DNA of 64,000 nucleotides from an uncultured Planctomycetia bacterium (GCA_964460615.1 CAYWPX010000001.1:120073-184072), one strand, 5' to 3'; counted from the stretch's first letter, positions 27,349 through 48,292 are shown. Program-made: numbers and translations. Notes: generated from the letters alone by a model not told the origin.

Positions 27349-27377
27349 AGGGTCAAGGGTTAAGGGATAAGCGGATA
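27349..27377 (+). repeat. heptad array (GGGTYAA-type) between the two ABC ATPase genes
   Basis: AGGGTCA AGGGTTA AGGGATA AGCGGATA; related TAGGGATAAGGGTTAG at about 61700. Confidence 0.6.
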
Positions 27378-27402
27378 AAATCTTTTAGAAAAAACAAATA
27401 TT

Positions 27403-28281
27403 ATGATTAAGATAAAAGATATAAAAAAATATTATAAGATTGAAAAGGGATTCTTCAAAAGGGAGACAGGCCTTATTAAGGCTGTTGACGGGGTGAGCCT
27501 GGATATTAAAAAGGGCAAAACCCTCGGGCTTGTCGGCGAGTCAGGTTGCGGGAAAACCACGCTTGGAAAGATCATCGTAGGGTTAATAAAACCTGACGAA
27601 GGAAGTATAAAAATAAGTAATAGAGATCTGACGCTATCAGGAAAGAGCGGCAATAGATCTGTCAGTAAAATTGTCCAATTTATTTTTCAGGATCCGTATT
27701 CATCGCTAAATCCGCGGATGACCTTAAAGGAGATCGTTACCGAGCCCCTACTGATCCATGAAAAATTGACCAAGTCTGACATAGATAATAGATTCCTTAA
27801 ATTATTAGACCTTGTTAGGCTGCCAAAAGAAGGCCGGAATAAGTATCCTCATCAATTTAGCGGCGGAGAGAGGCAGAGGATAGGCATTGCAAGAGCGCTG
27901 GCCCTTACTCCTGAGTTTATAGTATGCGATGAGCCGGTATCGAGCCTGGATGTTTCTATTCAGGCGCAGATTTTAAACCTTTTAAAGGAATTGCAGGAAG
28001 AGTTGAATCTTACGTACCTTTTTATTTCGCATGATCTAAGCGTTGTGGAGTTTATAAGCGATGTTGTAGCGGTCATGTATAGCGGTAAGATCGTTGAGAT
28101 AGCAGATAAGAGAGAGTTATACAAGAACCCATTGCATGGCTATACAAGGGTCCTGCTTAATAGCATCCCTGTTCCGGACCCAAGAAGAACATTAAAGGTT
28201 GTGCTTACAGAAGATTTTTCGGATCAACTCAAGATTAAAGACCTAAGAGAGATCACTCAGGGCCATTTTGCGGCTATTTAG
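27403..28281 (+). CDS. ABC transporter ATP-binding protein (DppF/OppF-like)
   Basis: Walker A GESGCGKTT, signature FSGGERQR, Walker B CDEPVSSLD. Confidence 0.9.
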   Translation: MIKIKDIKKYYKIEKGFFKRETGLIKAVDGVSLDIKKGKTLGLVGESGCGKTTLGKIIVGLIKPDEGSIKISNRDLTLSGKSGNRSVSKIVQFIFQDPYSSLNPRMTLKEIVTEPLLIHEKLTKSDIDNRFLKLLDLVRLPKEGRNKYPHQFSGGERQRIGIARALALTPEFIVCDEPVSSLDVSIQAQILNLLKELQEELNLTYLFISHDLSVVEFISDVVAVMYSGKIVEIADKRELYKNPLHGYTRVLLNSIPVPDPRRTLKVVLTEDFSDQLKIKDLREITQGHFAAI

Positions 28282-28368
28282 AGTAAAATCAGCTTAAAAT
28301 AACTGATATGGCATAATAAACCTCAAATTAACTCTGGTTTTTCCTTTAATTTCTTTATAAAAAAATAT

Positions 28369-28397
28369 TTGCAAAAGCCGCGTTTTTATAATATAAT
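28369..28397 (+). promoter_or_regulatory. sigma70-type promoter upstream of glgC
   Basis: TTGCAA-17 nt-TATAAT, followed by ~110-nt leader with nested hairpin CTGCCA...AAACCCAtaatGGGTTT...TGGCAG. Confidence 0.5.
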
Positions 28398-28508
28398 ATT
28401 TTACTCATTTCAACCCAGATTAAATTTCAGTTATTATAATGTAATTTGGGTTCACTGCCAACAACCTGAAACCCATAATGGGTTTTTCGTGGCAGCCTTT
28501 TGAAGTTT

Positions 28509-29735
28509 ATGAAAAATCTACTGACTTTTATAATGGCAGGCGGTAAAGGCGAAAGGCTTTATCCTTTAACTAAGGATAGGGCGAAGCCTGCTGTGCCGTT
28601 TGGCGGAGTATATAGGATAATAGATTTTACTCTTTCCAATTGCATCAATTCAGGGATCAGGAAGATCCATATACTTACTCAGTATAAATCGATCTCTTTA
28701 GAGCGTCATATTAGATCAGGATGGATGATCTTTGAGTCGGAATTGGGAGAATTTGTTGATATTATTCCCGCACAGCAGAGAGTTGATGATCACTGGTATC
28801 AGGGAACGGCAGATTCAATATATCAGAATATTTATTCGATAGAGATGGAAAAACCCGATCATGTGTTAATACTGGCAGGCGACCATGTCTATAAGATGGA
28901 CTACTCTAAGATGCTAGAGTTCCATATGAATAAGGGTGCCGATATAACTTTAGGCGTTGTTGAGATGCCTATTGAAAGAGTCAAGGATTTCGGTATCGTT
29001 GAGGTCGATCCCAATTTTAAAGTCCACGGTTTTGAGGAGAAACCCAATACACCTAAGACAATACCTGATGACTCCAAAAAAGCCTATGTTTCAATGGGGA
29101 TATATATATTTTCGAAAGAATTTCTGATAACCTCGCTTATAGAGGATGCTAAAGACAAGTCTTCAAACCATGATTTCGGGAGAAATATTGTACCTCTAGC
29201 CATTAAAAATGGCGCAAAGGTTTATGCTTATAATTTTAAAGATGAGAACAAAAAAGAGGCAAAGTACTGGAGGGATATAGGCAGTATAGATGCCTATTTT
29301 GAGGCAAATATTGACCTTATATCGGTTTCTCCGATTTTTAATTTATATGATAAGGATTGGCCGATCAGGACATACCAGGAACAGTATCCGCCTGCAAAAT
29401 TTGTTTTTGCTCAGACCGACAAAGAGGGTGGTAGGCGCGGTATAGCATTGGATTCGTTGATATCGCATGGTTCTATACTTTCTGGAGGCAGGGTTTATAG
29501 GTCTGTGCTTTCTCCGAACGTAAGGACAAACAGTTTTTCTGTAGTTGAGGACTCGGTATTACTGGAAGGCGTTGAGGTTGGCAGGCACGCCAAAATAAGG
29601 CGCGCCATTATTGATAAAGACGTCATAATACCTCCGAAGACGGAGATTGGTTATAACTTAGAAGAGGATAGGAAAAGATTTCACGTTACGGAATCCGGGA
29701 TCGTTGTCGTAGCAAAGGGGACAGAGATAAAATAG
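28509..29735 (+). CDS. glgC: glucose-1-phosphate adenylyltransferase
   Basis: MAGGKGERLYPLTKDRAKPAVPFGG N-terminal motif; start set at ATG 28509 (track begins at TTG 28500). Confidence 0.9.
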   Translation: MKNLLTFIMAGGKGERLYPLTKDRAKPAVPFGGVYRIIDFTLSNCINSGIRKIHILTQYKSISLERHIRSGWMIFESELGEFVDIIPAQQRVDDHWYQGTADSIYQNIYSIEMEKPDHVLILAGDHVYKMDYSKMLEFHMNKGADITLGVVEMPIERVKDFGIVEVDPNFKVHGFEEKPNTPKTIPDDSKKAYVSMGIYIFSKEFLITSLIEDAKDKSSNHDFGRNIVPLAIKNGAKVYAYNFKDENKKEAKYWRDIGSIDAYFEANIDLISVSPIFNLYDKDWPIRTYQEQYPPAKFVFAQTDKEGGRRGIALDSLISHGSILSGGRVYRSVLSPNVRTNSFSVVEDSVLLEGVEVGRHAKIRRAIIDKDVIIPPKTEIGYNLEEDRKRFHVTESGIVVVAKGTEIK

Positions 29736-30185
29736 ATGATTAGAAAAGCGAATATGTCAGATGTAAAGAAGATCCAGAAGTTGGTTAAGTTCTATGCCGA
29801 CAAAGATGAGATGCTTCCAAGGTCTTTAAGCGAGCTATATGAAAATATTAGGGATTTTTTTGTATATAGTGACGGTAATAAGATCTATGGATGCGCGGCG
29901 CTTCACATAAATTGGGAAGACCTTGCTGAGATTAAAGCTGTTGCAGTAGCAAAATCCAAAGCAAGACAGGGCGTCGGAACAAAACTTATTAATGCCTGTC
30001 TTGATGAAGCCAAAAAAATGAAGATCAAAGAGGTTTTTGTCCTCACCTATAAGCCGGAATTTTTTAAGAAATTCGGGTTTTCCTTGATCGATAAATCGAA
30101 GCTTCCTCATAAGATCTGGACAGAATGCATAAAATGCGTTAACTTTCCAAATTGCAATGAAATAGCGCTAAAAAAAGAAATGTAA
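29736..30185 (+). CDS. GNAT-family N-acetyltransferase (short ArgA-like form possible)
   Basis: 149 aa; acetyl-CoA motif ARQGVGTKL; C-terminal CIKC...FPNC. Confidence 0.65.
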   Translation: MIRKANMSDVKKIQKLVKFYADKDEMLPRSLSELYENIRDFFVYSDGNKIYGCAALHINWEDLAEIKAVAVAKSKARQGVGTKLINACLDEAKKMKIKEVFVLTYKPEFFKKFGFSLIDKSKLPHKIWTECIKCVNFPNCNEIALKKEM

Positions 30186-30191
30186 TATAAT

Positions 30192-30256
30192 AGCTCATGG
30201 CTCGCAAGCTCATAGCTCATAGGTAAATTCCTAGAGCCCTGAACCTAGAGCCTGGG
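30192..30256 (+). repeat. heptad array (GCTCAT-type) plus duplicated CCTAGAGCC motif between the GNAT gene and leuC
   Basis: AGCTCATG GCTCGCA AGCTCATA GCTCATA; CCTAGAGCC-ctgaa-CCTAGAGCC. Confidence 0.7.
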
Positions 30257-30279
30257 GCAGTATTTAAGAGGGAATTAAA

Positions 30280-31545
30280 ATGGGATTTACGATAACAGAA
30301 AAAATACTTTTGAAGCATTCGGGTGTTAAAACGGTTACTCCCGGAGAGTTTATTTTAGCGGATGTTGATCTGGCACTTGGTAACGATATCACGGCACCCC
30401 TGGCTATAAAAGAATTTGAAGGGATGGGGTTAGGAAAGGTATTTGATAAAAATAAAATCGCATTAATACCCGACCATTTTACTCCCGCAAAGGATATGAA
30501 AAGCGCCAATCAGGCAAAGATCCTCAAGAATTTTGCCGATAGGTTTAAGATAAAGCACTACTATGAAGTGGGCAGGGTCGGCATAGAACATGCTTTTTTA
30601 CCCGAACAGGGAATAGTAATGCCCGGGGATCTCGTAATAGGGGCTGATTCACACACATGTACGTACGGTGCGCTCGGAGCTTTTTCTACCGGCGTGGGGT
30701 CTACGGACCTTGCGGCGGCAATGGCCACCGGCAAAGTCTGGTTTAAGGTCCCTGAGAGCATCAAATTTGTTTATACTGGAAAACTCAATAAATGGGTCGG
30801 AGGAAAAGACCTGATACTTTTTACGATAGGACAGATCGGCGTAGACGGAGCATTATATAAGGCGATGGAATTTACCGGGAACGCGATAAAAAAGCTTCCT
30901 ATGGACGATAGATTTGCCATGTGCAATATGGCGATTGAGGCCGGCGGGAAAAGCGGGATTATTGAGCCGGATGATATTACAGAAAACTATGTTTCGGCTA
31001 CATCAAAGATATCGAAAAGAAAATTTAAATTTTACTCCAGTGATAAAGATGCAAAGTATACCAAGGTTTATGAATACGATGTAAATAAGATGGAACCGCA
31101 GGTATCCTTGCCTCATTTACCTAGTAACGCGGTGCCGGTAAGCAAGGTAAAGAAATCGGTTGACCAGGTAGTGATAGGGTCTTGTACAAATGGCAGGATC
31201 TCAGATATACGGCTGGCTGCCAAAGTCCTTAAAGGAAAAAAGATTAACTCAAGAGTACGCCTTATTGTTATCCCTGCAACCCAGGCAGTATTCCAGCAGG
31301 CGATCAAAGAGGGGTTAGTCGATATATTTATCAATGCCGGCGGAGTATTCTCTACTCCGACTTGCGGGCCTTGTTTAGGCGGCCATATGGGAATATTGGC
31401 TGAAGGCGAAGTAGCCATAGCTACTACTAACAGGAACTTTGTTGGCAGAATGGGTAGTCTTAAAAGCGAAGTTATGCTCTCAAATCCGGCAGTCGCGGCT
31501 GCGTCTGCAATAACCGGAAAAGTTACACATCCTGATGAGATCTAA
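30280..31545 (+). CDS. leuC: 3-isopropylmalate dehydratase large subunit (short aconitase-X type)
   Basis: 421 aa; Cys ligands for 4Fe-4S ([15 protein letters not shown]); followed by LeuD-like small subunit. Confidence 0.85.
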
Positions 31546-31606
31546 TGGCAGAAGACAGAAAACAGAATTCAGAAGTTAGAAAAAACTAAAAAAATAAGAG
31601 ATAAAA

Positions 31607-32098
31607 ATGATTATAAAAGGGAAGATACATAAATTCAGGGACGACATAAATACGGACGAGATAATACCGGCAAAGTATTTGAATACTACAGATGCCAAGG
31701 AGTTGGCTAGTCATGTAATGACCGGTATTGATGAGAGTTTTCCGTCCAAAGTTAAGGAAGGCGATATTATTGTCGGCGGTAAAAATTTCGGTTGCGGGTC
31801 ATCAAGGGAACACGCCCCTCTGGCTATCAAATCAGCAGGGATCCAGTGTGTAATAGCCGAGAGTTTTGCCAGGATCTTTTTAAGGAATAGTATTAATATA
31901 GGCTTGCCGATTTTTGAAAGCGCTCTTGCTTCAAAAGAGGTCAATGACGGCGATGTTGTCGAGATAGATACCGAAAAGGGGATTATCAGGAATTTATCGA
32001 CGGATGAAGAATATATTTCAAAGCCTTTCCCGAAATTTATGGAAGATATTATAGTATCGGGCGGGCTTTTAAACTGGATAAGGAAAATAGCCGGGTAA
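31607..32098 (+). CDS. leuD: 3-isopropylmalate dehydratase small subunit
   Basis: 163 aa; [14 protein letters not shown] motif. Confidence 0.85.
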
Positions 32099-32346
32099 TG
32101 GCAAAGATAGAGAAGGAGACAAAAAGGATCATCGCTTTTACCTCTAACTTTAAGGTTGAAGGCGATATCCATGTGCATATAGGCGCAAGGTTATCTGATT
32201 ATATAGAGACCTTGACCAAAAGCTTTATTCCGCTTACTAGAGTAATTATCTATAAGATCGGCGAAGATAAGCCGATCCACCATACGAATTTTTTAGAATT
32301 GAACAAAGACGAAGTTGTAATAATATCACCAAAAGAGGAGATCTAA
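32098..32346 (+). CDS. hypothetical small protein encoded between leuD and leuB
   Basis: 82-aa ORF; start overlaps leuD stop (TAATG); fills the leuD-leuB gap. Confidence 0.45.
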   Translation: MAKIEKETKRIIAFTSNFKVEGDIHVHIGARLSDYIETLTKSFIPLTRVIIYKIGEDKPIHHTNFLELNKDEVVIISPKEEI

Positions 32347-32353
32347 TTCTGCC

Positions 32354-33418
32354 ATGAAAGGAACGCATAATTACAAGATTGCAGTGATTCCCGGCGATGG
32401 AACCGGCCCGGAAGTTGTGAACGAGGGATTAAAAGTTTTAGAAGCGGTTTCTAAATTAGAAAATTTTAAATATAGCCTTACAAATTATGATTTTGGAGGC
32501 GCAAGATATTTAAAAAAAGGAGAGACCCTGCCTGATAGCGCCATAGCCGAACTTAAAAAGGCAGATGCTATATTTTTGGGTGCAATTGGGCATCCTGATG
32601 TGAAGCCGGGGATCCTTGAGCAGGGGATTCTTTTGAAATTAAGATTCAGCCTCGATCAGTATATTAACCTTAGGCCCGTTAAACTTTATGATGAGCGATT
32701 CTGTCCCTTGAAGGATAAAGGCTCAAAGGATATTGATTTTGTTGTTATAAGGGAAAACTCCGAAGGGCTTTATAAAGGAATGGGAGAGTTCCGTGATAAG
32801 GGTACGCCCAATGAAGTGGCTATTCAGTTATCGTACAATACTAGAGCCGGAGTTGAAAGATGCATTAGATATGCCTTTGAATTTACAAGAAAGAGAAATA
32901 GAGCCAAAAAACTTACTCTTTGCGGGAAGACTAATGTTTTGACATTTGCATGGGATCTTTGGCAGAGGACGTTTAATGAGGTTGCAAAGGAGTATCCCGA
33001 CATTAAGACAGATTATGCCCATGTAGATGCGACAACTATGTGGTTTGTCAAAAACCCTGAGTGGTTTGACGTAATTGTTACCGATAATATGTTCGGCGAT
33101 ATTATTACTGACCTAGGGGCAATGATCCAAGGAGGCATGGGGATAGCTGCCGGTGGGAATCTTAACCCTGAGGGTGTTTCTATGTTTGAACCCATCGGAG
33201 GAAGCGCGCCTAAATATACAGGTTTAAATGTGATAAATCCTCTAGCAGCAATTTGTGCTGCCGGAATGATGCTTAACGAGCTTGGAGAAACCAAGGCAGC
33301 CGACAGAATAGAGCAGTCAGTAATAAAAATTGCTACCACAAAACTTAAGACATTAGCTGCCGGAAAAATGGGATATTCAACGACTGAAGTAGGAGATCTG
33401 GTAGTAAAGAATTTATAA
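32354..33418 (+). CDS. leuB: 3-isopropylmalate dehydrogenase (isocitrate/isopropylmalate dehydrogenase family)
   Basis: KIAVIPGDGTGPEV N-terminus, NMFGDIITD motif. Confidence 0.85.
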   Translation: MKGTHNYKIAVIPGDGTGPEVVNEGLKVLEAVSKLENFKYSLTNYDFGGARYLKKGETLPDSAIAELKKADAIFLGAIGHPDVKPGILEQGILLKLRFSLDQYINLRPVKLYDERFCPLKDKGSKDIDFVVIRENSEGLYKGMGEFRDKGTPNEVAIQLSYNTRAGVERCIRYAFEFTRKRNRAKKLTLCGKTNVLTFAWDLWQRTFNEVAKEYPDIKTDYAHVDATTMWFVKNPEWFDVIVTDNMFGDIITDLGAMIQGGMGIAAGGNLNPEGVSMFEPIGGSAPKYTGLNVINPLAAICAAGMMLNELGETKAADRIEQSVIKIATTKLKTLAAGKMGYSTTEVGDLVVKNL

Positions 33419-33421
33419 ATT

Positions 33422-33450
33422 GTACGGCGTACGGAGTAAGGAGTACGGCG
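33422..33450 (+). repeat. heptad array (GTACGGC)x4 between leuB and asd
   Basis: GTACGGC GTACGGA GTAAGGA GTACGGC. Confidence 0.7.
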
Positions 33451-33479
33451 TTAATAGCTATTAATAAATTGGGTGAAAG

Positions 33480-34490
33480 ATGAAAAAATCTAAATATAAT
33501 GTTGCGGTAGTCGGAGTCGGCGCAGTTGGCGAAGAGATGCTGCGCGTTCTAAAACAGAGAAAATTTCCGATCAACGAGCTTAAAGTTTTAGCTCGTTCTT
33601 CAAGGGATATAAATGTTGACGGGGTCAAGTATTCCGTCAGAGAGATAAAACCGGAAGAGTTTAGCGGAGTTGACATAGCTTTGTTCGCAGGGACCGAAGG
33701 CGACAAGGGTGCGGCCGTTACTTATGCGCCGGTAGCCATTAAGGCTGGGGCAGTTGTTATTGATAACGGAGCTGATTTCAGGATGGATAAGGATGTGCCT
33801 TTGATTGTCCCCGAAGTAAATCCTGAAGATGCCTCTAAGCATAAAGGTATTATAGCAAACCCCAATTGTTCTACCATTCAGATGGTTGTAGCTTTAAAAC
33901 CGATATATGACCTCTCCAGGATTAATAGGGTGATTGTCTCTACCTATCAGGCGGTTTCCGGAGCAGGCAGAAAAGGTATAGAAGAGTTAAAGGCTCAGTC
34001 TAAATGTATTTCCAATAAGGAGGGTAATTGCGAGTGCAGTGCTTTCCCAAGGCAGATCGCTTTTAATGTTATCCCTCATATAAGCAAATTTGAAGATTAT
34101 GATTATACGACTGAAGAATGGAAGATGATCCGCGAGACCCATAAGATCATGCATGATGATAAGATCAAAATTTCCGCTACAACTGTCCGAGTACCTGTTT
34201 TAAACGGACATTCTGAATCCGTTTATCTGGAAACTGAAAAGCCTCTTCCTATCGAAAAGGTAAGAGAGGCTCTTAAAAAGGCAAAAGGGATCGTTGTAAT
34301 TGATGAGAAGGTCGGGGACGGCCTTAGATCGTATCCTATGCCCATAGATGCTGACGGCAAGGATGATGTTTTTGTCGGAAGGATCAGAAAAGACCCGTAT
34401 GTAGAAAACGGCTTGTGGTTATGGGTAGTAGCTGACAACCTGAGAAAAGGCGCGGCATCAAACGCGGTTCAGATAGCTGAATTGTTGTAA
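33480..34490 (+). CDS. asd: aspartate-semialdehyde dehydrogenase
   Basis: VAVVGVGAVG NAD(P) motif; active-site NPNCSTIQ. Confidence 0.9.
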   Translation: MKKSKYNVAVVGVGAVGEEMLRVLKQRKFPINELKVLARSSRDINVDGVKYSVREIKPEEFSGVDIALFAGTEGDKGAAVTYAPVAIKAGAVVIDNGADFRMDKDVPLIVPEVNPEDASKHKGIIANPNCSTIQMVVALKPIYDLSRINRVIVSTYQAVSGAGRKGIEELKAQSKCISNKEGNCECSAFPRQIAFNVIPHISKFEDYDYTTEEWKMIRETHKIMHDDKIKISATTVRVPVLNGHSESVYLETEKPLPIEKVREALKKAKGIVVIDEKVGDGLRSYPMPIDADGKDDVFVGRIRKDPYVENGLWLWVVADNLRKGAASNAVQIAELL

Positions 34491-34496
34491 TAATTT

Positions 34497-35264
34497 ATGC
34501 ATAATATCAGGTTAACTATTGAGTATGATGGTACAGATTATTCTGGCTGGCAAGCTCAAAGAAGCGCAAATAGCAAATCGCAAATAGCAAATAAAGAAAT
34601 AAGAACCATACAGGGTACTATAGAAGAAGCTCTTTTAAAGATTCTGCAGGAAAAGGTAAATATTGTTGCCGCGGGAAGGACAGATAGCGGCGTTCACGCT
34701 GTTGGACAGGTGTGCAATTTTAGAACCAGTTCTAAAATTGCGCCTTTAAGCATAAAGAAGGCTCTTAATAGTGCCCTCCCTAAGGACATTTCAATTAAAA
34801 GCGCAGAGTATGTAGAACTTAAATTCAATTCCCAGATTGACGCCAAAAGTAAAATCTATAGATATAGGATACTCGCTCGTGATCACGGAGCTCCCTTATT
34901 AAGGAAGCAGACCTACAATTACAAGTTTCCTCTTGACCTTAAGCTGATGAAGAGTGAAGCCAAGGCGCTTCTGGGGAGGCACAATTTTAAATCTTTTCAG
35001 GCAAAAGATATAGTAGAAAGATTCCCAAGATGCAATGTAAAAAGCATTGTTATCACTAAGGAAGGGGATCTGATTAATATTGACATTGAGGCTGACAGGT
35101 TTCTCTACAATATGGTCAGGAATATTGTAGGTACCTTGCTGGAAGTGGGCAGGGGCTACTTTAAAAAAGGCTCTATGCATATCATTCTTAATAAGCTTGA
35201 TAGATCTTTAGCAGGGCCAACTGCACCCAGCCATGGATTAACGCTACTAAAAGTTAAATATTAA
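34497..35264 (+). CDS. truA: tRNA pseudouridine(38-40) synthase
   Basis: IEYDGTDYSGWQ, AAGRTDSGVHAVGQV catalytic Asp motif. Confidence 0.85.
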   Translation: MHNIRLTIEYDGTDYSGWQAQRSANSKSQIANKEIRTIQGTIEEALLKILQEKVNIVAAGRTDSGVHAVGQVCNFRTSSKIAPLSIKKALNSALPKDISIKSAEYVELKFNSQIDAKSKIYRYRILARDHGAPLLRKQTYNYKFPLDLKLMKSEAKALLGRHNFKSFQAKDIVERFPRCNVKSIVITKEGDLINIDIEADRFLYNMVRNIVGTLLEVGRGYFKKGSMHIILNKLDRSLAGPTAPSHGLTLLKVKY

Positions 35265-35310
35265 AACTTTGCTTTTGTGAGCAAAAAATAGATAATAATA
35301 CAAAAAGTTG

Positions 35311-35339
35311 TTGACATAATCTGACGCTTATGTTATATT
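35311..35339 (+). promoter_or_regulatory. sigma70-type promoter for rplM-rpsI
   Basis: TTGACA-17 nt-TATATT with TG extension. Confidence 0.6.
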
Positions 35340-35362
35340 CAAACTTTCAATAAGAGGTAAAT

Positions 35363-35791
35363 ATGAAGACATTTATGATTAAAAAGGGTGAAGCAAAGCA
35401 CGATTGGTACATAATTGATGCTAAGGATAAGGTTCTTGGTAGAGTTGCTACAAGGATCGCAACACTTTTGCTTGGCAAAAATAAGGTTACCTATACTCCG
35501 CATGTTGATACCGGAGAAGGTGTCATAGTAATTAATGCAGATAAGATCAAGGTTACCGGAAAAAAACTTGAGGATAAAGAATATCAGAGATATTCTGGTT
35601 TTCCTGGCGGCAAAAGAGTTGTCACATTAGGGACATTGCTCAGCAAAAAACCGGAAAAAGCTTTGATCCTTGCTGTTAGGCGCATGCTACCAAAGACCAG
35701 GCTCGGAGATGACATGATTAAACGTCTGAAGGTTTATCCTGGGGACAAGCATCCTCACGAAGCGCAAGGACCGAAGGTTGTGTCGCTTTAA
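35363..35791 (+). CDS. rplM: 50S ribosomal protein L13
   Basis: WYIIDAKDKVLGRVATRIA signature; 142 aa. Confidence 0.9.
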   Translation: MKTFMIKKGEAKHDWYIIDAKDKVLGRVATRIATLLLGKNKVTYTPHVDTGEGVIVINADKIKVTGKKLEDKEYQRYSGFPGGKRVVTLGTLLSKKPEKALILAVRRMLPKTRLGDDMIKRLKVYPGDKHPHEAQGPKVVSL

Positions 35792-35820
35792 TATAACACT
35801 AATCACAAGGAGAAGTTTAA

Positions 35821-36216: not shown

Positions 36217-36244
36217 TCAGTAATTTTAGAAGCCTTACAAAAAG

Positions 36245-36296
36245 ACCTATTTTGTCAATACTCCGTCGAAAAAGAGTTGACAAAATAGGTTTTTTA
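36245..36296 (+). terminator. intrinsic terminator after rplM-rpsI
   Basis: Perfect 14-bp inverted repeat ACCTATTTTGTCAA...TTGACAAAATAGGT with 18-nt loop, followed by TTTTTT. Confidence 0.75.
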
Positions 36297-38596: not shown

Positions 38597-38602
38597 AAAC
38601 TA

Positions 38603-38676
38603 GCGATTAGGCGATTAAGTGATTAGGTAATTAGGTAAAACCCAATCACATAATCGCATAATTACCAAATCGCTAT
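38603..38676 (+). repeat. octad-periodic imperfect inverted repeat between argJ and argB
   Basis: GCGATTAG GCGATTAA GTGATTAG GTAATTAG ...loop... CAATCACA TAATCGCA TAATTACC AAATCGC (arms reverse-complementary at about 26 of 33 positions). Confidence 0.75.
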
Positions 38677-39530: not shown

Positions 39531-39534
39531 TAAA

Positions 39535-40728: not shown

Positions 40729-40732
40729 TCTT

Positions 40733-41668
40733 ATGTGGAAGGATAAGCCAAAGAAAGACCTTATAAGGCTATTAGATCTTAGTAGCGATGATATTAACTA
40801 TATTTTCGATGTCACAGAGAAATTAAAGTGCAAAAAGATCGGCCTTGATGAGCCTTTAAAGAATAAAAACCTGGCGCTTATTTTTCAGAAACCTTCCAAC
40901 AGGACCAGGGTCTCCTTCGAAGTCGGTATGCATCAGCTTGGCGGTGATACGATATATCTGGGGCCGGAAGATATTAAGCTCGGCGTCAGGGAATCAAGCA
41001 AGGATATCGCAAAAGTTTTATCCAGGTACGTCGATGTTATTGTTGTAAGGACATTTTCCAATAAAGTTGTCGAAGAAATTGCCGAGTATTCTTCAATGCC
41101 GGTCATTAACGGCCTTAGCGATCTTTATCATCCCTGCCAGGGACTTGCTGATATATTTACGATAAAAGAAAAGTTCGGGTCATTTAAAAATATTCAAATT
41201 AGTTATGTTGGCGACGGGAATAATGTATTAAATTCTCTTATGGTTGGGGCAAGTATTCTAGGCCTAAATTTAAATATTGCTACACCAAAAAAATACGAAC
41301 CCAACAAGAACATTGTTAGTGATGCTATGGCAATAGCCAAAAAGACGGGAGCAAGTATTAAATTTTCCAATGACCCGGTTGAAGCGGTTAAAAATTCTGT
41401 AGTTATTTATACGGATGTCTGGACCAGCATGGGCCAGGAAAAGGAAGCCGCAAAAAGAAGGAAGGCGTTTAAGAGTTTTCAGATCAATGAGAAGCTTTTA
41501 AGCTGTGCCAAAAAGGAATGCTTGGTCATGCATTGTCTTCCGGCTCATAGGGGCGAAGAGATCACTGATGAGGTCATGGACGGGCCAAGTTCGATAGTTT
41601 TGGACCAGGCTGAAAACAGGCTCCATATACAGAAGGCGTTACTTTTAATATTACTTGGGAAAATATAG
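40733..41668 (+). CDS. argF: ornithine carbamoyltransferase
   Basis: STRTRVSFE carbamoyl-phosphate motif, HCLPA motif. Confidence 0.9.
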   Translation: MWKDKPKKDLIRLLDLSSDDINYIFDVTEKLKCKKIGLDEPLKNKNLALIFQKPSNRTRVSFEVGMHQLGGDTIYLGPEDIKLGVRESSKDIAKVLSRYVDVIVVRTFSNKVVEEIAEYSSMPVINGLSDLYHPCQGLADIFTIKEKFGSFKNIQISYVGDGNNVLNSLMVGASILGLNLNIATPKKYEPNKNIVSDAMAIAKKTGASIKFSNDPVEAVKNSVVIYTDVWTSMGQEKEAAKRRKAFKSFQINEKLLSCAKKECLVMHCLPAHRGEEITDEVMDGPSSIVLDQAENRLHIQKALLLILLGKI

Positions 41669-41737
41669 CTGTAAGCTATAAGTTGTAAGCCGTAAGAAGA
41701 TCCAAAGATTTAAAAGCTTATTGCTTAAAGCTTATAA
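41668..41737 (+). repeat. heptad-periodic imperfect inverted repeat between argF and argG
   Basis: GCTGTAA GCTATAA GTTGTAA GCCGTAA ... AAGCTTAT TGCTTAA AGCTTATA. Confidence 0.7.
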
Positions 41738-41759
41738 CATACTGCTTGAGAGGGGAAAA

Positions 41760-42929
41760 ATGAAAAAAGTTGTTCTAGCATATTCAGGGGGCCTTGATAC
41801 TTCCTGTGCGGTAAAATGGCTGAAGGATAGAGATTATTTCGTTATCTGCTATATGGCTGATGTCGGTCAGGGCGGTAATTTTAATGAGATAAAAAAACGT
41901 GCTTTTGCCGCGGGCGCTGATAAGGTAGTGATAGAGAGTTTGCAAAAAGAGTTTGTAGAGGATTTTGCGTTCGTTTCTTTAAAAGCTGGGGCAGTATATG
42001 AATCCAAGTATTTTTTGGCGACTGCGCTTTCGAGGCCTCTTATAGGTAAAGGCTTAGTGAATGTTGCCAGAAAAGAAAAAGCTCAGGCGGTATCTCATGG
42101 ATGCACCGGGAAAGGTAATGACCAGGTAAGGATCGAGACGTCCGTCATGTCTTTGGGCGGGGACCTTGAGATAATTGCTCCCGTACGAGTGTGGGAATTT
42201 AAGACCAGAAATGAAGAGATAGATTATGCGAAAAAACAGAATATCCCGATAGATGTGACCAAAAAAAGCCCATATAGTTTAGATAAGAACCTATGGGGAG
42301 TCAGTATCGAGTGCGGTATCTTAGAAGACCCTATGGTGGAACCTCCTAAGGATGCCTATCAATGGACAAATGACCCCAAAGACGCTCCCAATAAAGAGAC
42401 TTATATTGAAGTTACTTTTGAAAAAGGCATACCTATTAAGGTCAATGGTAAATCGCTTGAACCGGTCCAGTTGGTTGAAAAGCTTAATGAGATCGGCGGG
42501 CTTAATGGTGTAGGCAGATGTGACCTCGTAGAGAACAGGCTTGTAGGAATAAAATCCAGAGAGATCTATGAAGCCCCGGCTGCATATATTCTTCACACGG
42601 CATACGAAGCATTGGAGAATCTGGTTTTAGACAGAGAGACTTTTCATTTTAAAAAGAGTTTATCTTTAAAATATGCCGAGATGGTTTATTTTGGCCTGTG
42701 GTTTACACCGCTAAAAAGCGCCTTGGACAAATTTTTTGATGAAGTTGCTAAAAAGATTAGCGGAACTACAAGGCTCAAGCTGTATAAAGGAACGTGTGCT
42801 ATCGTAGGCAGGACTTCACCGAATTCACTTTATAAAAAAGATCTTGCTACTTATGACGAAGGCGATAAGTTTGACCAGTCATTTGCCGAAGGTTTTATAA
42901 GGATATGGGGATTGCCGTATAAGAAATAG
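41760..42929 (+). CDS. argG: argininosuccinate synthase
   Basis: AYSGGLDTS PP-loop; start at ATG 41760 (track 41721). Confidence 0.9.
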   Translation: MKKVVLAYSGGLDTSCAVKWLKDRDYFVICYMADVGQGGNFNEIKKRAFAAGADKVVIESLQKEFVEDFAFVSLKAGAVYESKYFLATALSRPLIGKGLVNVARKEKAQAVSHGCTGKGNDQVRIETSVMSLGGDLEIIAPVRVWEFKTRNEEIDYAKKQNIPIDVTKKSPYSLDKNLWGVSIECGILEDPMVEPPKDAYQWTNDPKDAPNKETYIEVTFEKGIPIKVNGKSLEPVQLVEKLNEIGGLNGVGRCDLVENRLVGIKSREIYEAPAAYILHTAYEALENLVLDRETFHFKKSLSLKYAEMVYFGLWFTPLKSALDKFFDEVAKKISGTTRLKLYKGTCAIVGRTSPNSLYKKDLATYDEGDKFDQSFAEGFIRIWGLPYKK

Positions 42930-42957
42930 TTCATGGTTCATGGCTCATAGTTCATAG
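42928..42957 (+). repeat. heptad array (GTTCATG-type) overlapping the argG stop codon
   Basis: GTTCATG GTTCATG GCTCATA GTTCATA. Confidence 0.7.
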
Positions 42958-43009
42958 TTTAAAAGAACTGTGGCCAAGCGCCTGGAGCAAAACGCGGGAG
43001 AAAAAATTT

Positions 43010-44368
43010 ATGGCAAAAAAATTATGGGGTGGTAGATTCACCAAGCTTACAAGCCCTCTGGTAGAGGATTTTACCAGGTCTATCCAATTTGACAAGAAAC
43101 TTGCCCTGTATGACTGCGCCGGGTCTTTATTTTATATCGATGTCCTTAAAAAAGCCGGTGTCTTGACGGCTAAAGAACATAGAGCGCTATACCGCGGGCT
43201 TAATGATATTTTAACTGATATAAAATTTAATAAATTTAATGTTGACGAATCTTTTGAAGATATACACAGCTATATCCAGTATTTATTGGAAAAAAATGTA
43301 GGCAAGGTAGCGCTTAAGCTTCATACTGCCAGATCACGAAATGATCAGGTGCTTTTTGATGTAAAGCTTTATACGCTGGAGAATCTGGCTTTAACCAATA
43401 AACTGATCGTTAAACTCGGCAAGGCGGTAGTAAATCTTGCCATTAAAAATAAATCTGTTATCTGCCCCGGCTATACGCATATGCAGCATGCCATGCCGGT
43501 ATACCTTAGCGACCACCTGATGGCTTATAGTGAAATGCTTAAAAGGGATTTTGGCAGGCTAGACGCTATTTACAAAAATATCGTGCTTACAATGGGTTCG
43601 GGAGCCGTAGCGGGATCTTTTATAGAGGCCAAAAATTATGAAGGGGTTGTTGAGCTTTTTTTTGATGAGAAAGAATTCTCCGTCAAACCGTCAGTCAATT
43701 CTTTGGATACTGTAAGTGACAGGGATTTTGTCATAGAAGCGCTGAGTTCGCTTTCGATCTTAGGAATGCATCTATCCAGGTTGTCGGAAGATTTTATTTT
43801 ATGGTCGACAAAAGAGTTTGATTATATAGACATAGATGAGTCTTTCTGTACCGGCAGTTCTTTAATGCCTCATAAGAAGAATCCAGACGTGCTTGAACTA
43901 ACAAGGGGGTATGCCGGAAAATTGTACGGGAATCTGATGAGCGTGCTTACAATGATGAAGGGGCTTCCTCTAAGCTATAACCGCGATATGCAGCACGATA
44001 AAGAGCCGCTTTTTAGTTCGTTTGAGATAGTTCAGTCGGAATTGGGGGTATTCAGCGAGTTAATGGAAAACATAGAATTTAAAAAAGAGAATCTGAAAAA
44101 AGCACTGAATAACGAATTTTTATATGCTACTGACTTAGTCGATTATCTGGTAAAAAAAGACGTCGCCTTTAAGGATGCGCATGATATTATTGGAAAGCTT
44201 ATAAGTTTTGTGGCGGGTAAGAAGTTTTCCATAAAAGACCTCAGCGATGCAAAACTTAAAGAATTTTCCAAAAAATTGGAAAAAAAGGAAGTGGTTAAAT
44301 TGCTCGATCCCGAAGTTTCCATCGAGTCAAAAAGATCCGTAAGAAGAAAGACATTGACGGTTAAATAG
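43010..44368 (+). CDS. argH: argininosuccinate lyase
   Basis: GSSLMPHKKNPD fumarate-lyase signature; 452 aa. Confidence 0.9.
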   Translation: MAKKLWGGRFTKLTSPLVEDFTRSIQFDKKLALYDCAGSLFYIDVLKKAGVLTAKEHRALYRGLNDILTDIKFNKFNVDESFEDIHSYIQYLLEKNVGKVALKLHTARSRNDQVLFDVKLYTLENLALTNKLIVKLGKAVVNLAIKNKSVICPGYTHMQHAMPVYLSDHLMAYSEMLKRDFGRLDAIYKNIVLTMGSGAVAGSFIEAKNYEGVVELFFDEKEFSVKPSVNSLDTVSDRDFVIEALSSLSILGMHLSRLSEDFILWSTKEFDYIDIDESFCTGSSLMPHKKNPDVLELTRGYAGKLYGNLMSVLTMMKGLPLSYNRDMQHDKEPLFSSFEIVQSELGVFSELMENIEFKKENLKKALNNEFLYATDLVDYLVKKDVAFKDAHDIIGKLISFVAGKKFSIKDLSDAKLKEFSKKLEKKEVVKLLDPEVSIESKRSVRRKTLTVK

Positions 44369-44369
44369 T

Positions 44370-45638
44370 ATGCACCAATTTCAATACAAAAACGGCGAGT
44401 TTTATGCTGAAGACGTAAGGATACAGGATGTAGCCAAGAAGGTCGGCACGCCTTTTTATCTCTATAGCTATAACACTCTGATCGATCACTACAAAAAACT
44501 TGAGAAGGCATTCGCTTCAGTTAAGCCTCTTATCTGTTATTCTGCCAAAGCAAATTCCAGCCTTGCTATCTTAAGCGCATTGGTTAAGGCCGGTTCAGGT
44601 ATTGACATAGTTTCCGGAGGTGAGCTGGAAGCCAGCCGTATGGTAGGTGTAGACCCGAAAAAAGTTGTATATGCCAGTGTCGGTAAAAGAAAAGACGAGA
44701 TAAAAGAAGCTATTAAGATGGGAATACTTCTTTTTAATGTTGAGTCGCTGCCTGAACTTGAGGTTATCAATAGTATTGCGGAGAGCTTAAGAGTAAAACA
44801 AAAAGTTTCGATAAGGATCAATCCCGATATTAAGGTTAATACTCATAAATATATCACTACAGGGGAAGCTATATATAAATTCGGGATCGATCTTGAAACT
44901 GCCAAAAATATTATCCATGACTCCGGACGCCTTAAGAATATTACTATCGCAGGGCTTCATATCCATATAGGTTCGCAATTAGTTGAATCTAAGCCATTTG
45001 TTGATGCTATTGCTAAGATCCTCGATTTTATCAAAAGTGAAAATTTGAAACTCGAGTATCTTAATATCGGCGGCGGATTAGGTATTATTTATGACAAGGA
45101 AAAACCCCAGACAGCAGATGAATTCGCAAAGAATGTTTTACCGCTTCTTAAATCATCTAAATTAAAGATCATCCTTGAGCCCGGGAGATTTATTGTAGGG
45201 AACAGCGGTGTTTTGGTTACAAAGATCCTCTACATTAAAGAAACGCCTCTAAAAAAATTTATTATTGTTGATGCCGGAATGAATGATCTGGCCAGGCCAA
45301 GCCTTTACGGAGCCCATCACAGCATAGTTACTGCCATAGAGAAGAATAACGCAGAGCAAACATCCGTAGATATCGTCGGGCCTATATGTGAAAGCGGTGA
45401 TTTCCTTGCCAAGGCGAGGCCTATGCCGCCTTTGGCGATGGGTGAATTATTGGTAGTTATGGGAGCAGGGGCATACGGATTTTCAATGTCCAGTAATTAT
45501 AATATGCGTCCAAAAGTGGCTGAGGTTATGGTAAATAAGGATGAATTCTTTTTAATAAGAAAAAGAGAGTCTGTCAGGGACCTCTTTAAAAACCAGATCA
45601 TTCCTGGCGGGTTCAAGCTAATCAAAGGTTTAATATGA
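44370..45638 (+). CDS. lysA: diaminopimelate decarboxylase
   Basis: Fold-III PLP decarboxylase motifs (YSAKAN, GGGLGI, CESGD). Confidence 0.9.
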   Translation: MHQFQYKNGEFYAEDVRIQDVAKKVGTPFYLYSYNTLIDHYKKLEKAFASVKPLICYSAKANSSLAILSALVKAGSGIDIVSGGELEASRMVGVDPKKVVYASVGKRKDEIKEAIKMGILLFNVESLPELEVINSIAESLRVKQKVSIRINPDIKVNTHKYITTGEAIYKFGIDLETAKNIIHDSGRLKNITIAGLHIHIGSQLVESKPFVDAIAKILDFIKSENLKLEYLNIGGGLGIIYDKEKPQTADEFAKNVLPLLKSSKLKIILEPGRFIVGNSGVLVTKILYIKETPLKKFIIVDAGMNDLARPSLYGAHHSIVTAIEKNNAEQTSVDIVGPICESGDFLAKARPMPPLAMGELLVVMGAGAYGFSMSSNYNMRPKVAEVMVNKDEFFLIRKRESVRDLFKNQIIPGGFKLIKGLI

Positions 45639-46471
45639 AAAAAACAAAAAGATGTTTTATGCTGGAGTTCACAAAGGCCGTAGCCAGCGGCAATGACTTT
45701 ATTGTTATTGACAATAGGTCAAAAAAAATCAGGCAGTCATTAACGCTTATAGCCAAGCGTCTCACAAAAGTAAAAGATTCTATCGGGGCGGACGGGATAC
45801 TTGTTTTAGAAAGATCTAAAACTAAGAATGTGGATTTTAAAATGAGGATCTTTAACCCGGATGGGTCTGAGGCCGATATGTGCGGGAACGGCCTCAGGTG
45901 CATAGCCATGTATGCTTTCAGAAATAAGATCGCTAAAGCTGATATGGTTATTGAGACTAAAGCAGGTATATTAAACGCAAATGTATTAAAGAATGGTTTT
46001 GTAAGGATCGGCATCTCCGAACCGAAATCTTTGAGAGTAAACTTCAACATCTCTATAGACGGTATCATCCATAAAGTAAGCTTCGTTAATACCGGCGTTC
46101 CGCATGCTGTGTATTTTGTTGAGGATATAGATTCTACAGACGTAAAGCATTTGGGCCAGAAGACGCGCTTTCATGAAGAGTTCAGGCCTTATGGTACAAA
46201 TGTTAACTTTATTGAAATAATCGATTCCAAAAATATTCTGGTTCGCACCTACGAAAGGGGCGTTGAGGACGAGACGCTTTCCTGCGGGACCGGATCCGTG
46301 GCTAGCAGTTTAGTAAGCGGGTTATTAAAAAACTGCATTTCCCCGATCTCTGTCCATACAAGGTCCAGGGAGATCTTAAAAGTTTATTTTAAAAAATCCG
46401 AAGGGATTGTTAGCGAAGTTTACCTTGAGGGAAAAGCTAATTTAGTGTATGACGGGAGGATATTTATATGA
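45635..46471 (+). CDS. dapF: diaminopimelate epimerase
   Basis: GNDFIVID, NPDGSEADMCGNG, CGTGS catalytic Cys motifs. Confidence 0.85.
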   Translation: MKKTKRCFMLEFTKAVASGNDFIVIDNRSKKIRQSLTLIAKRLTKVKDSIGADGILVLERSKTKNVDFKMRIFNPDGSEADMCGNGLRCIAMYAFRNKIAKADMVIETKAGILNANVLKNGFVRIGISEPKSLRVNFNISIDGIIHKVSFVNTGVPHAVYFVEDIDSTDVKHLGQKTRFHEEFRPYGTNVNFIEIIDSKNILVRTYERGVEDETLSCGTGSVASSLVSGLLKNCISPISVHTRSREILKVYFKKSEGIVSEVYLEGKANLVYDGRIFI

Positions 46472-47340
46472 ATTTGAAAGGGTCATTTGTCGCTCTGGCT
46501 ACGCCTTTTAATAAAGACGGGAAGCTGGACGAAAAAAAATATATTGAGCTGATAGAGTTTCAGATAAAAAACGGTACAGACGGTATTGTCCCATGCGGAT
46601 GCACAGGAGAGGCCGCTACTCTTAATCACGAAGAGCAGAAGCATATCATAAAGCTCGCTGTAGAGGTAATTAATAAAAGAGTCCATGTTATGGCAGGTAC
46701 CGGATCCAATAGTACGGAAGAAGCGATGGAGTTGACTGCTTACGCAAAAAAAGCCGGGGCAGACAGCGCTCTTTTGATAACACCGTATTACAATAAGCCA
46801 ACGCCTGAAGGGCAATTCAGGCACTATGAAAAAATTGCAAAAGGAGTGAATATTCCCATCGTCCTTTACAATGTTCCTTCGAGGACCGGAATCTCTATAC
46901 TTCCAGATACTGTAGCAAGGCTCAATAAAATTGATAATATTGTTGCGATCAAAGAAGCCAGCGGCAGCCTGGACCAGGTAAGCCAGATACTCTCATTATG
47001 CGATATTACTGTTTTAAGCGGGGATGATTCCCTTACGCTTCCGATGATGTCTGTAGGTGCAAAAGGAGTTGTATCTGTTGTGGCGAATATTGTCCCAAAG
47101 GATGTAGCGGACATGGTGGCCAAATTTTTAAAAGGAGACTTAGAGGGAGCTAAATCGCTTCACTATAAGCTTCTGCCTCTGGTAAAAGCCATGTTCATAG
47201 AGACAAATCCCATTTGCGTCAAGACGGCTATGGGTATGATGAACCTGATCGAACCTAATCTTAGGCTTCCATTATGCGAAATGCAGCCATCGAATGCCGC
47301 TAAGCTTAAGGAAGTAATGAAAAGCTATAAATTGATCTAA
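46468..47340 (+). CDS. dapA: 4-hydroxy-tetrahydrodipicolinate synthase
   Basis: ALATPF, GTTGE-like CGCTGE, YNVPSRTG, Schiff-base Lys in VAIKEASG. Confidence 0.9.
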   Translation: MNLKGSFVALATPFNKDGKLDEKKYIELIEFQIKNGTDGIVPCGCTGEAATLNHEEQKHIIKLAVEVINKRVHVMAGTGSNSTEEAMELTAYAKKAGADSALLITPYYNKPTPEGQFRHYEKIAKGVNIPIVLYNVPSRTGISILPDTVARLNKIDNIVAIKEASGSLDQVSQILSLCDITVLSGDDSLTLPMMSVGAKGVVSVVANIVPKDVADMVAKFLKGDLEGAKSLHYKLLPLVKAMFIETNPICVKTAMGMMNLIEPNLRLPLCEMQPSNAAKLKEVMKSYKLI

Positions 47341-47437
47341 GTTCATATATATTTTATGGATGGGGTCCTTCGCCCGGGATGTGTACTAGCCCGGGACATT
47401 AGGACTAAATATGCAGGTAAATTTGGAGGAATTAGAT

Positions 47438-48241
47438 ATGCTTAATATCGTGGTAACCGGATGTATGGGCAGGATGGGAAAGCGTATAATATCACTTGCC
47501 AATTTTGATAAAGAAGTTGAAATAGTTGGTGCCATCGAAGCTCCTAAGCATACCTTTTTGGGTAAAGATATAGGTGAAGTTCTTGGTTTGGGAGTTTTAG
47601 ACATTAATGTTACCGATAAGCTTGAAAAATCCCTAAAAAAAGCCGATGTAATAATTGAATTTACTAATCCTCAGACTACTCTCAATGATCTTGAAATAGC
47701 TAAGAAAAACCGTGTTGGTATTGTTATCGGAACAACTGGTATGAAAGAGGATGAGATTACAAAGATTAAAGACGCCGCCAAGAAGATCCCAATAGTATTT
47801 TCTCCGAATATGAGCCTTGGGGTTAATCTTTTGTTCGAATTGGTAGAAGAGTGCGTAAAAAGGTTGGGCAAAGATTATGATATAGAGATCATTGAGTCTC
47901 ATCATAGATTTAAAAAAGACGCACCAAGCGGAACTGCCAAAGAATTTGCTCAGATAATTGCTAATACCATGAAAAAAGATTTATCTAAAGTAGCAACGTA
48001 CGGAAGAAGCGGTATTGTTGGCGAAAGGCCTGAAAATGAGATCGGTATCCATGCGATCCGAGGCGGAGATATTGTCGGTGAGCACAATATAATGTTCTGT
48101 GGGATGGGCGAGAGGATAGAGCTTATTCATAGAGCGCATTCAAGGGATTCATTTGCCCAGGGCGCAATAAGGGCTGCAAAGTTTTTACAGAATAAGAAAT
48201 CAGGGCTTTTTACAATGAAGGATGTTTTAAAAGCGAGCTAG
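47438..48241 (+). CDS. dapB: 4-hydroxy-tetrahydrodipicolinate reductase
   Basis: VVTGCMGRMG NAD(P) motif, ESHHRFKKDAPSGTA; start at ATG 47438 after GGAGGA (track 47411). Confidence 0.85.
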   Translation: MLNIVVTGCMGRMGKRIISLANFDKEVEIVGAIEAPKHTFLGKDIGEVLGLGVLDINVTDKLEKSLKKADVIIEFTNPQTTLNDLEIAKKNRVGIVIGTTGMKEDEITKIKDAAKKIPIVFSPNMSLGVNLLFELVEECVKRLGKDYDIEIIESHHRFKKDAPSGTAKEFAQIIANTMKKDLSKVATYGRSGIVGERPENEIGIHAIRGGDIVGEHNIMFCGMGERIELIHRAHSRDSFAQGAIRAAKFLQNKKSGLFTMKDVLKAS

Positions 48242-48245
48242 ATTT

Positions 48246-48292
48246 AGCTCATAGTTCATAGCTCATAGCTGATGGCTGCGAGCTGAAAGCTT
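48246..48292 (+). repeat. heptad array pair between dapB and dapL
   Basis: AGCTCAT AGTTCAT AGCTCAT AGCTGAT GGCTGCG AGCTGAA AGCTT, ending 11 nt before ATG 48304. Confidence 0.7.

Follow-up and report, generated by a model that had tools for sequence, protein, structure and literature searches.

The 64,000-nt stretch of DNA deposited for an uncultured Planctomycetia bacterium (GCA_964460615.1, CAYWPX010000001.1:120073-184072; the window, always taken at its full length) carries, in the spacers of otherwise ordinary biosynthetic operons, short tandem arrays of degenerate units that share a period of about 7 nt and differ in sequence, which raises the question of what these arrays are and how such a period is kept. 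A first-pass annotation, made from the DNA sequence alone, had reported them at seven sites between positions 27349 and 48292, had read their common period and arm symmetry as signs of a structural or mechanistic origin rather than of a single sequence-specific binding site, and knew of no described element of this kind. The repeats belong to the known class of heptanucleotide short tandemly repeated repetitive (STRR) sequences, and what is new is their phylum, Omnitrophota, the window itself being part of a Candidatus Omnitrophota genome.

First, the signal is real, specific to period 7 and enriched in spacers, as follows from the counts of a lag scan and its shuffle control. The window was split into 6,097 nt of spacers (9.5% non-coding) and 57,903 nt of coding sequence, and every lag was searched for segments in which 17 or more of 21 positions are self-matches. 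Of the 12 segments at lag 7, 11 fall in spacers and the other in coding sequence, which amounts to an approximately 100-fold enrichment of spacers over genes; period 8 yields one segment, period 14 three, period 15 one, and periods 2-6 and 9-13 none. Dinucleotide-shuffled spacers contain 0.01 segments per period, compared with the 11 observed in spacers at period 7, and the periodicity analysis that the first-pass annotation had suggested thus bears out its claim for the window. Together, Tandem Repeats Finder and the lag scan describe the arrays as head-to-tail degenerate 7-nt units, typically in 4-6 copies, with a minority at period 8 or 9. The units cited at the seven sites are indeed present at the positions given for them and are also called by Tandem Repeats Finder, although the pattern is not confined to 27349-48292 but continues to 63013 and includes one array within truA. 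A higher-order repeat of 14 nt was considered and rejected, as no array matches better at lag 14 than at lag 7.

Next, the arrays are a feature of operon interiors. The genes of the window are almost all on the plus strand, as are all arrays described below, with a GC content of about 0.40. Names assigned from NCBIfam in the range of the first report are oppD, oppF, glgC, an acetyltransferase gene, leuC, leuD, leuB, asd, truA, rplM, argC, argJ, argB, argD, argF, argG, argH, lysA, dapB and the gene of an LL-diaminopimelate aminotransferase, and Pfam matches on Logan contigs matching the window add dapF, dapA, panC, panD and nadA, followed by rlmL and genes for an Smr protein and a YgjP-like protein. 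An array starts at a median of 3 nt past the upstream stop codon, often overlapping it, and the median distance from its end to the following start codon is 17 nt. Orthologous junctions measure 50-85 nt with an array and range from an overlap (-2) to about 20 nt without one, so the array is the spacer itself. The best sigma-70-like sites (11 of 12 positions) lie in array-free spacers upstream of glgC, rplM and argC, no array is found among the terminator-like sites, with no T run after any stem, Rfam gives no match at gathering score in the whole window and none at E <= 1 in 27000-64000, and the window has no tRNA genes; taken together, these results identify the arrays as intra-operon spacers. 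Nor do they resemble clustered regularly interspaced short palindromic repeats, as the units are contiguous and 7-8 nt long compared with 24-48-nt repeats separated by unique spacers.

The same property extends to the relatives of the window genome. Among GTDB representatives and JGI metagenomes, the nearest homologues of its ArgF and ArgG belong to Candidatus Omnitrophota and reach 65-67% identity; ArgF had no exact match at the protein level, and the genome is otherwise present only as two Logan contigs from run SRR12487046, identical to the window. Across 1.12 Mb of sequence, made up of 80 argF loci of GTDB species representatives (labelled L001 onwards), there are 76 arrays at period 7, and 13, 7, 3, 0 and 4 at periods 8, 9, 10, 11 and 12, respectively. 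Period-7 arrays number 18.8 per 100 kb in the window, 8.2 and 12.3 in two sets of Omnitrophota-type loci, those labelled Omnitrophota and those among the top matches labelled Planctomycetia, respectively, and 1.2-1.6 in other phyla. Heptad arrays are therefore a lineage-wide trait of many Omnitrophota genomes. The property shared among them is the period and not the sequence, as the first-pass annotation had held: among 31 genomes no 4-mer of the units, CTGA/TCAG included, rises above the level of shuffled units, and a cross-genome motif was accordingly rejected. At argG-argH alone the unit changes with the species (AATCAAA, AGAAGTT, TAGTCAA, AACGTAA, AACCAGG, GTCAGCT, AGTAAGA, AAAAGTT, AATACGC, ATAGTTC).

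The rate of this change is best seen in L001, L002 and L003, whose genes are about 90% identical and whose corresponding junctions hold unrelated units, other periods, a plain palindrome or no spacer. The two-arm hairpin between argJ and argB has period 7 in L001 and period 9 in L003; argB-argD holds a GTTAAAA array in L001 and L002 and a 19-bp perfect palindrome in L003; argF-argG has no spacer in L001, 58 nt in L003 and a different array in L002; and an array internal to argC, in a variable loop of the protein rather than in a spacer, reads CCACCAG in L001 and CCGGTCA in L003. The sequence of an array, and even its presence, thus turns over faster than substitutions accumulate in the flanking genes. 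The spacers of relatives are not alignable to one another. At the argF-argG junction, the genes of L001 overlap at ATGA (10905-10916), and the counterpart in L003 (10916-10975) is a spacer made by local tandem duplication, apparently of about three copies of a segment of approximately 19 nt with the Shine-Dalgarno-like GGAGTTTAG. In L017 a run of N (17384-17581), a scaffold gap, lies amid a long CAAAGAC array, which indicates that such arrays can break short-read assemblies.

While units differ between genomes, each genome re-uses its own unit families. With rotation and strand allowed, 20% of array pairs more than 400 nt apart within a genome have units within one mismatch of each other, compared with 3% between genomes, and none of 2000 permutations reached the observed within-genome similarity. 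In the window, (RGYTCAT)n and (WAGCTGA)n each recur at six sites, the former behind stop codons and the latter ahead of start codons, ending 3-18 nt before starts that include 48304, 54497, 55732, 56073 and 59201, two of the six having no Shine-Dalgarno match; the earlier claim of a different unit at each site was in this respect overstated. Neither are the arrays restricted to spacers, as 22 of 98 are each spanned by one tblastn alignment to a protein of the window. These in-frame arrays occupy variable loops of ArgC (one loop in five species), TruA, DapF (three loops) and LysA, the same loop carrying arrays of different units in several species, and they add 0-3 residues (nine in TruA) and yield 7-residue repeats. 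The window example is (MGCAAAT) x 4 inside truA (34562-34595), which codes for an inserted loop between GWQxQ and TIQG. A protein alignment shows that the 9-residue TruA insertion is common to about 10 of 17 lineages with some peptide similarity kept, which implies that arrays can persist for long at one site.

We consider that the arrays are probably, though far from certainly, long simple-sequence repeats (SSRs) of the STRR type that are driven by slippage and are largely neutral or selfish. Replication slippage or unequal exchange would add and remove whole units, by which the period would be inherited while the unit sequence drifts and homogenises. A family would then be copied to other permissive sites of the same genome, for which ectopic conversion, template switching or mobility are candidate routes, and selection would purge arrays everywhere except right after stop codons, right before start codons and in unconstrained loops of proteins. 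Inverted arrays, perhaps arising from strand-switch copying, would fold as interrupted hairpins in the polycistronic mRNA; such hairpins probably act like intercistronic stem-loops of the repetitive extragenic palindromic (REP) type, as a side effect of the arrays and not as the reason for them. The self-match within arrays, which falls from 0.775 to 0.708 and 0.654 at lags 7, 14 and 21, so that adjacent units are most alike, is weighed below. Of the origin proposed at the outset, the mechanistic part fits better than a single binding site, with a mutational cast, since the units show no enrichment of a NAG-N4 register, of palindromic cores or of stop triplets, while hairpin symmetry did not hold as the unifying feature: an inverted partner within 110 nt is found for 21 of 86 arrays (6.2 expected), four arrays of the window remain unfolded, and there are the arrays inside proteins. 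Two candidate drivers were rejected outright, namely palindromic tetranucleotide cores promoting hairpin-assisted slippage, present in 36 units where chance would give 31.9 (p = 0.17), and a function in supplying stop codons to all three frames, for which 35 units compare with an expectation of 32.5.

The folding of the window arrays was evaluated for the sense RNA as z relative to shuffled sequences, the folded segments beginning a few nucleotides before the arrays (for example at 27338, 30186, 54296, 55987 and 62877). Four single arrays do not fold (segments from 27338, 31546, 33419 and 41665). These are (AGGGTYA) x ~4.5 in the oppD-oppF spacer (27344-27378), which begins 7 nt past the stop codon (z -0.2); the A-rich (CAGAARA) x 5 between leuC and leuD (31547-31581; z +0.2); (GTACGGM) x 4 between leuB and asd (33421-33451; z -1.2); and (AGCYRTA) x 4.3 between argF and argG (41667-41696; z -0.8), which begins on the argF stop codon and is followed by an AAAGCTT run that is not its complement. 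A short (GATMGCT) x 2.7 array (59172-59190) ends 10 nt before the start codon at 59201.

Other sites are built of two arms. In the acetyltransferase-leuC spacer (30192-30259), (RGCTCAT) x 4.5, a 9-nt loop region and (CCTAGAG/CCCTGAA) x 3.5 form an interrupted hairpin with a minimum free energy (MFE) of -29.2 (z -1.9), the 5' arm of which is alignable with five other sites. The argJ-argB spacer (38602-38675) has period 8 and consists of (RGYGATTA) x 4.5, a loop and (TAATCRCA) x 4, giving a long hairpin with one mismatch per unit (MFE -27.3, z -6.9; none of 200 shuffles as stable). In the argG-argH spacer (42926-42988), (RGTTCAT) x 5 over the argG stop codon is joined by a degenerate, G.U-rich partner (MFE -26.2, z -4.0). 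The dapB-dapL spacer (48243-48293) consists of seven contiguous units, (AGYTCAT) x 3.5 running into (RGCTGAW) x 3.5, that fold back via AGCU cores (z -2.5); AGCTCAT pairs with AGCTGAA chiefly through the palindromic AGCT core. An inverted second arm, which had been claimed for argJ-argB, argF-argG and dapB-dapL, is therefore clear at the first of these and also at argG-argH, weak at dapB-dapL, where it owes mostly to the palindromic core, and missing at argF-argG. In the neighbouring dapA-dapB spacer (47341-47410) a non-tandem hairpin (CCCGGGATGTGTACTAGCCCGGGACAT) stands in place of an array. Farther downstream, the rlmL-smr spacer (55638-55715) holds (AGCTCAT) x 4.5 over the stop codon, the loop AGTAAAAGCAATA and (AGCTGAW) x 5 (z -0.2), and a second copy of this element in the smr-ygjP spacer (55991-56069) ends 3 nt before the start codon (z -2.7). 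The two are 85% identical over 73 nt, loop included (55641-55713 and 55994-56066), and are the only pair to share a loop; the gene between them (55732-55986), for an 84-residue Smr-domain protein, is flanked on both sides by these near-identical AGCTCAT/AGCTGAA elements. Across 62881-63013, (GCTCNAG) x 3 and (CCTAGAG) x 4 pair over an 82-nt GC-rich insert (MFE -51.8, z -2.2).

Two further sites are nested composites. Upstream of rlmL (54297-54492), the outer arms AAGCTATCAGCC and (CTGAWWW) x 4 enclose inner arms made of a period-8 array, (AGCACAAG) x 6.6, and its partner (GGTGCTCT/TGTGACT), with MFE -60.4 and z -2.6, none of 200 shuffles being as stable. After ygjP (56765-56875), the outer arms are (AGCTCAT) x 4 and GATAGCTGAAAGCTGA, and the loop holds (AGTACAC) x 4.6 and GTGTTCTGGTGACT (z -0.1). 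A hairpin, TTCCGCCACAAAGCGTTGGCGGA, flanked by heptad units occurs twice in the window (56868-56917 and 59793-59842; 84% identical). Comparison with shuffled sequences, likewise suggested in the first-pass annotation, hence confirms folding at several two-arm sites, to z -6.9, and denies it for the segments from 55636 (z -0.2) and 56762 (z -0.1) and for the four single arrays.

The window contains other repeated modules as well. Structured leaders at 28440-28499 and 61250-61303, each immediately preceding a start codon (that of glgC and that of an open reading frame (ORF) at 61304), have in common TTCACTGCC[A/C]ACAA and the stem that follows, without a match in Rfam. A 48-nt module ending in the palindrome GGTGCCWGGCACC is found upstream of small genes at 59040-59087, 61094-61141 and 63197-63244, near a pilin-like (N_methyl) gene (58180-58878), and a second module lies at 58070-58113 and 58933-58976. 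A small hydrophobic ORF beginning MQNLALKVAGFVFG is present in three copies (61991-62372 and 63724-64000), the longest pair being 93% identical over 165 nt.

Several points weigh against slippage-driven, largely neutral arrays. Local slippage alone leaves unexplained how one family reaches into many spacers, and likewise why arrays differ totally between genomes about 90% identical in their genes. The units are degenerate and not perfect, so slippage may no longer be active, and since the arrays were picked at lag 7, part of the fall in self-match with lag follows from the way they were detected. The window genome is, moreover, represented by 64 kb only. Two further points concern RNA structure: in 15 of 19 species the long argJ-argB spacers fold strongly (z <= -3.6) with unrelated sequences, which might reflect selection for a hairpin, and at 20 of 27 sites the sense fold is more stable than the antisense fold (p = 0.02) and has more G.U pairs, which hints at selection at the level of RNA.

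The latter results lend themselves to a tentative alternative, unlikely on balance, in which the arrays are selected intercistronic RNA elements whose hairpins, like the REP stem-loops of E. coli, shield the upstream cistron from 3' exonucleases or mark processing sites and so set the relative expression of the cistrons. With no more than the same low probability, the A-rich single arrays would keep the next ribosome-binding region open, and tandem units would be the cheapest way to build either form. The position of the arrays within operons and not at promoters or terminators, with starts 0-7 nt past the stop codon, agrees with such a role, as does the A-rich sense strand of the arrays (A 0.365, T 0.235). 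Strong folding despite unrelated sequences recurs at argG-argH, where the long spacers of 15 of 24 species fold with z <= -3; the folding spacers of both junctions have periods of 7, 8, 9 or 10, or are plain palindromes. This is, however, compatible either with a selected stem-loop or with sites that are safe for palindromic repeats, and palindromes give a low z whether functional or not. Junction-specific selection for hairpins was rejected, as the share of foldable spacers (15/19, 15/24 and 3/8) does not differ clearly from one junction to another. The preference for the sense fold is confounded by strand composition, since GC and AT skew could yield it alone. Finally, the element is dispensable, many relatives having no spacer at these junctions, some window hairpins are no more stable than their shuffles (z -0.2 and -0.1), and the 22 arrays inside proteins do not fit an intercistronic function.

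A more doubtful possibility is that the arrays descend from small non-autonomous mobile elements of the REPIN or miniature inverted-repeat transposable element type, in which an enzyme encoded by the genome, for instance a single-strand transposase of the RAYT/IS200 type, copies the hairpin in full, arms and loop, to new sites, and slippage remodels the copies only later. The genome-specific unit families, the two full copies at rlmL-smr and smr-ygjP that share even the loop, the nesting of elements in the loops of others (54297-54492 and 56765-56875), the single orientation of all five AGCTCAT...AGCTGAA elements and the varying presence among genomes with genes about 90% identical would all be expected of such elements, and relatives have REP-like GTAGGGAC palindromes in spacers of this kind. 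Yet 5' and 3' arms are freely combined across families, RGYTCAT being found with three different 3' arms, single arrays are common, and the arrays in coding loops overlay an existing segment with 0-3 extra residues instead of inserting a fixed block. Neither a target-site duplication nor a conserved terminal motif was seen, and no transposase, RAYT included, is among the approximately 45 annotated genes of the window, the first 26 kb of which are unannotated. The REP-like palindromes just mentioned start with GTAGGGAC and end with GTCCCTAC, and lie in intra-operon spacers of several Omnitrophota relatives (L006, 374-420 and 922-990; L038, 8716-8750; L055, 6350-6390; L052, 96-125); their core is found also in the argG-argH spacers of L058 and L022, they are non-tandem, and none was seen as such in the window.

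It is about as doubtful, if not slightly more so, that something less familiar is at work: Omnitrophota may carry an active, genome-specific system by which 7-nt tandem units are written into, or spread through, permissive DNA. Such a system might consist in templated copying or conversion, or in a mobile hairpin with its enzyme, possibly together with a co-evolving protein that reads a 7-nt register. If true, this would account for one family colonising many spacers and protein loops of a genome, and also for unrelated families at the same junctions of genomes about 90% identical.

Less probable again is periodic binding, to RNA or single-stranded DNA, of a protein that recognises a short motif once per 7 nt, such as a HutP or TRAP ring or tandem OB or cold-shock domains (S1/Csp), and that co-evolves with the family of each genome. 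HutP sites consist of three UAG-N4 units, and thus have period 7, and TRAP sites are regularly spaced NAG triplets. Most 5' arrays in the window show AG or GG every 7 nt, several of them reading as NAG-N4, and genome-specific families would be expected from co-evolution with a binding factor. The (WAGCTGA)n arrays just upstream of six start codons, two of these without a Shine-Dalgarno match, likewise recall the TAACTGA repeats of Beggiatoaceae, from which the unit is one base apart (PMC4679880). The HutP-like register, although it fits most window arrays, was rejected since it is lost in relatives, where only about half of the units contain AG, as by chance, and the lack of any 4-mer enriched across genomes points the same way. 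Moreover, the family differences at about 90% gene identity would demand a very fast change in protein specificity, arrays in proteins and on either strand of hairpins misfit a site read in mRNA, and the arrays lie between biosynthetic cistrons and not in a terminator or antiterminator leader. Chance or an assembly artefact can practically be discarded, as the gap within the L017 array and the ability of arrays to break assemblies are outweighed by the 0.01 segments in shuffles against 11 observed, by the pattern in dozens of independently assembled genomes from different studies and by the intact host reading frames across in-gene arrays.

As for the claim that no such element had been described, intergenic over-representation of heptanucleotide tandem repeats has already been published (PMC4692102, PMC4679880). 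According to these two papers, heptanucleotides are the most abundant class of 5-11-nt tandem repeats in many bacterial genomes, with polymerase slippage as the proposed cause (long SSRs; Mrazek et al. 2007), and Calothrix PCC 7601 is noted to have three families of heptanucleotides. The STRR sequences of cyanobacteria (Mazel et al. 1990), as far as the citing papers describe them (PMC4692102, PMC4679880), likewise comprise several heptanucleotide families per genome and are tandem, intergenic and lineage-restricted. The Omnitrophota arrays have the features by which STRR sequences and long SSRs are recognised, namely at least three tandem 7-nt units, an excess over chance and over other lengths, a non-coding bias with an intragenic minority, recurrent families within a genome, lineage restriction and variation between close relatives; no description of such repeats in Omnitrophota was found in the literature searched.

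The closest parallels are the GGGAATC repeats of Xanthomonas and the GGGGAYT repeats of Nostoc PCC 7120, which mostly have about four units, are approximately 90% intergenic and lie mostly between co-oriented genes (Rehm et al. 2015, PMC4692102). They are nearer to the end of the upstream gene, form many convergent inverted pairs with stem-loop potential, include an intragenic minority and vary between close relatives (Xcc and Xac), and no regulatory role was identified for them (PMC4692102). The arrays of the window and its relatives match these in unit size, copy number, intergenic bias, co-orientation of the flanking genes, stop-side position, inverted pairs, intragenic minority and variation from relative to relative. 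However, in Xanthomonas and Nostoc one G-rich unit capable of forming a G-quadruplex dominates, whereas here there are many families per genome and most are not G-rich; G-quadruplex formation thus cannot be the cause here, nor the general cause of heptamer repeats. The window is also about five times denser in arrays than a genome of roughly 5 Mb with 186 of them.

Marine Beggiatoaceae, some cyanobacteria and Bacteroidetes have direct repeats of TAACTGA in 2-6 intergenic copies (MacGregor 2015, PMC4679880). These stand a few nucleotides upstream of starts, many of which have no Shine-Dalgarno sequence, in some cases extend over the preceding stop codon, and in a few fall in ORFs at the periphery of the protein (PMC4679880). 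The (WAGCTGA)n family of the window, one base off, also stands just upstream of starts, though ending near the start holds for that family only. The unit is WAGCTGA and not TAACTGA, and related heptamers including TAGCTGA are not repeated in BOGUAY. There, one unit dominates and the arrays are not predicted to fold, whereas here the units are many, a quarter of arrays are paired into hairpins and most adjoin a stop and not a start codon.

REP, BIME and REPIN sequences are proteobacterial imperfect palindromes of intra-operon spacers just past stop codons that form genome-specific families and nested clusters. REP elements affect mRNA stability and the translation of the upstream gene, and are fixed palindromes of 20-40 nt that have in common a conserved GTAG end and are accompanied by a cognate RAYT gene. 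The Omnitrophota arrays are similar in their position after stop codons, genome-specific families and nesting, but their arms are tandem 7-nt units of freely combined families without a conserved terminal motif, and they exist also as single arms and within genes.

The Omnitrophota repeats differ from the published cases in their high density, their many families that are not G-rich, the frequent inverted pairs that form hairpins and the recurrent in-frame arrays in protein loops. In these compact genomes arrays make up nearly all intra-operon spacers. They put stem-loops beside stop and start codons, provide enzymes with 7-residue repeats, interrupt assemblies and can lead gene callers astray, and they could serve as strain markers, as in STRR-based polymerase chain reaction typing of cyanobacteria. 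With orthologous junctions that can be compared across many genomes, Omnitrophota offer a dense, multi-family case that is not G-rich, and one that bears on two questions posed since 1990-2007, namely why bacterial tandem repeats favour 7 nt and how a heptamer family spreads in a genome.

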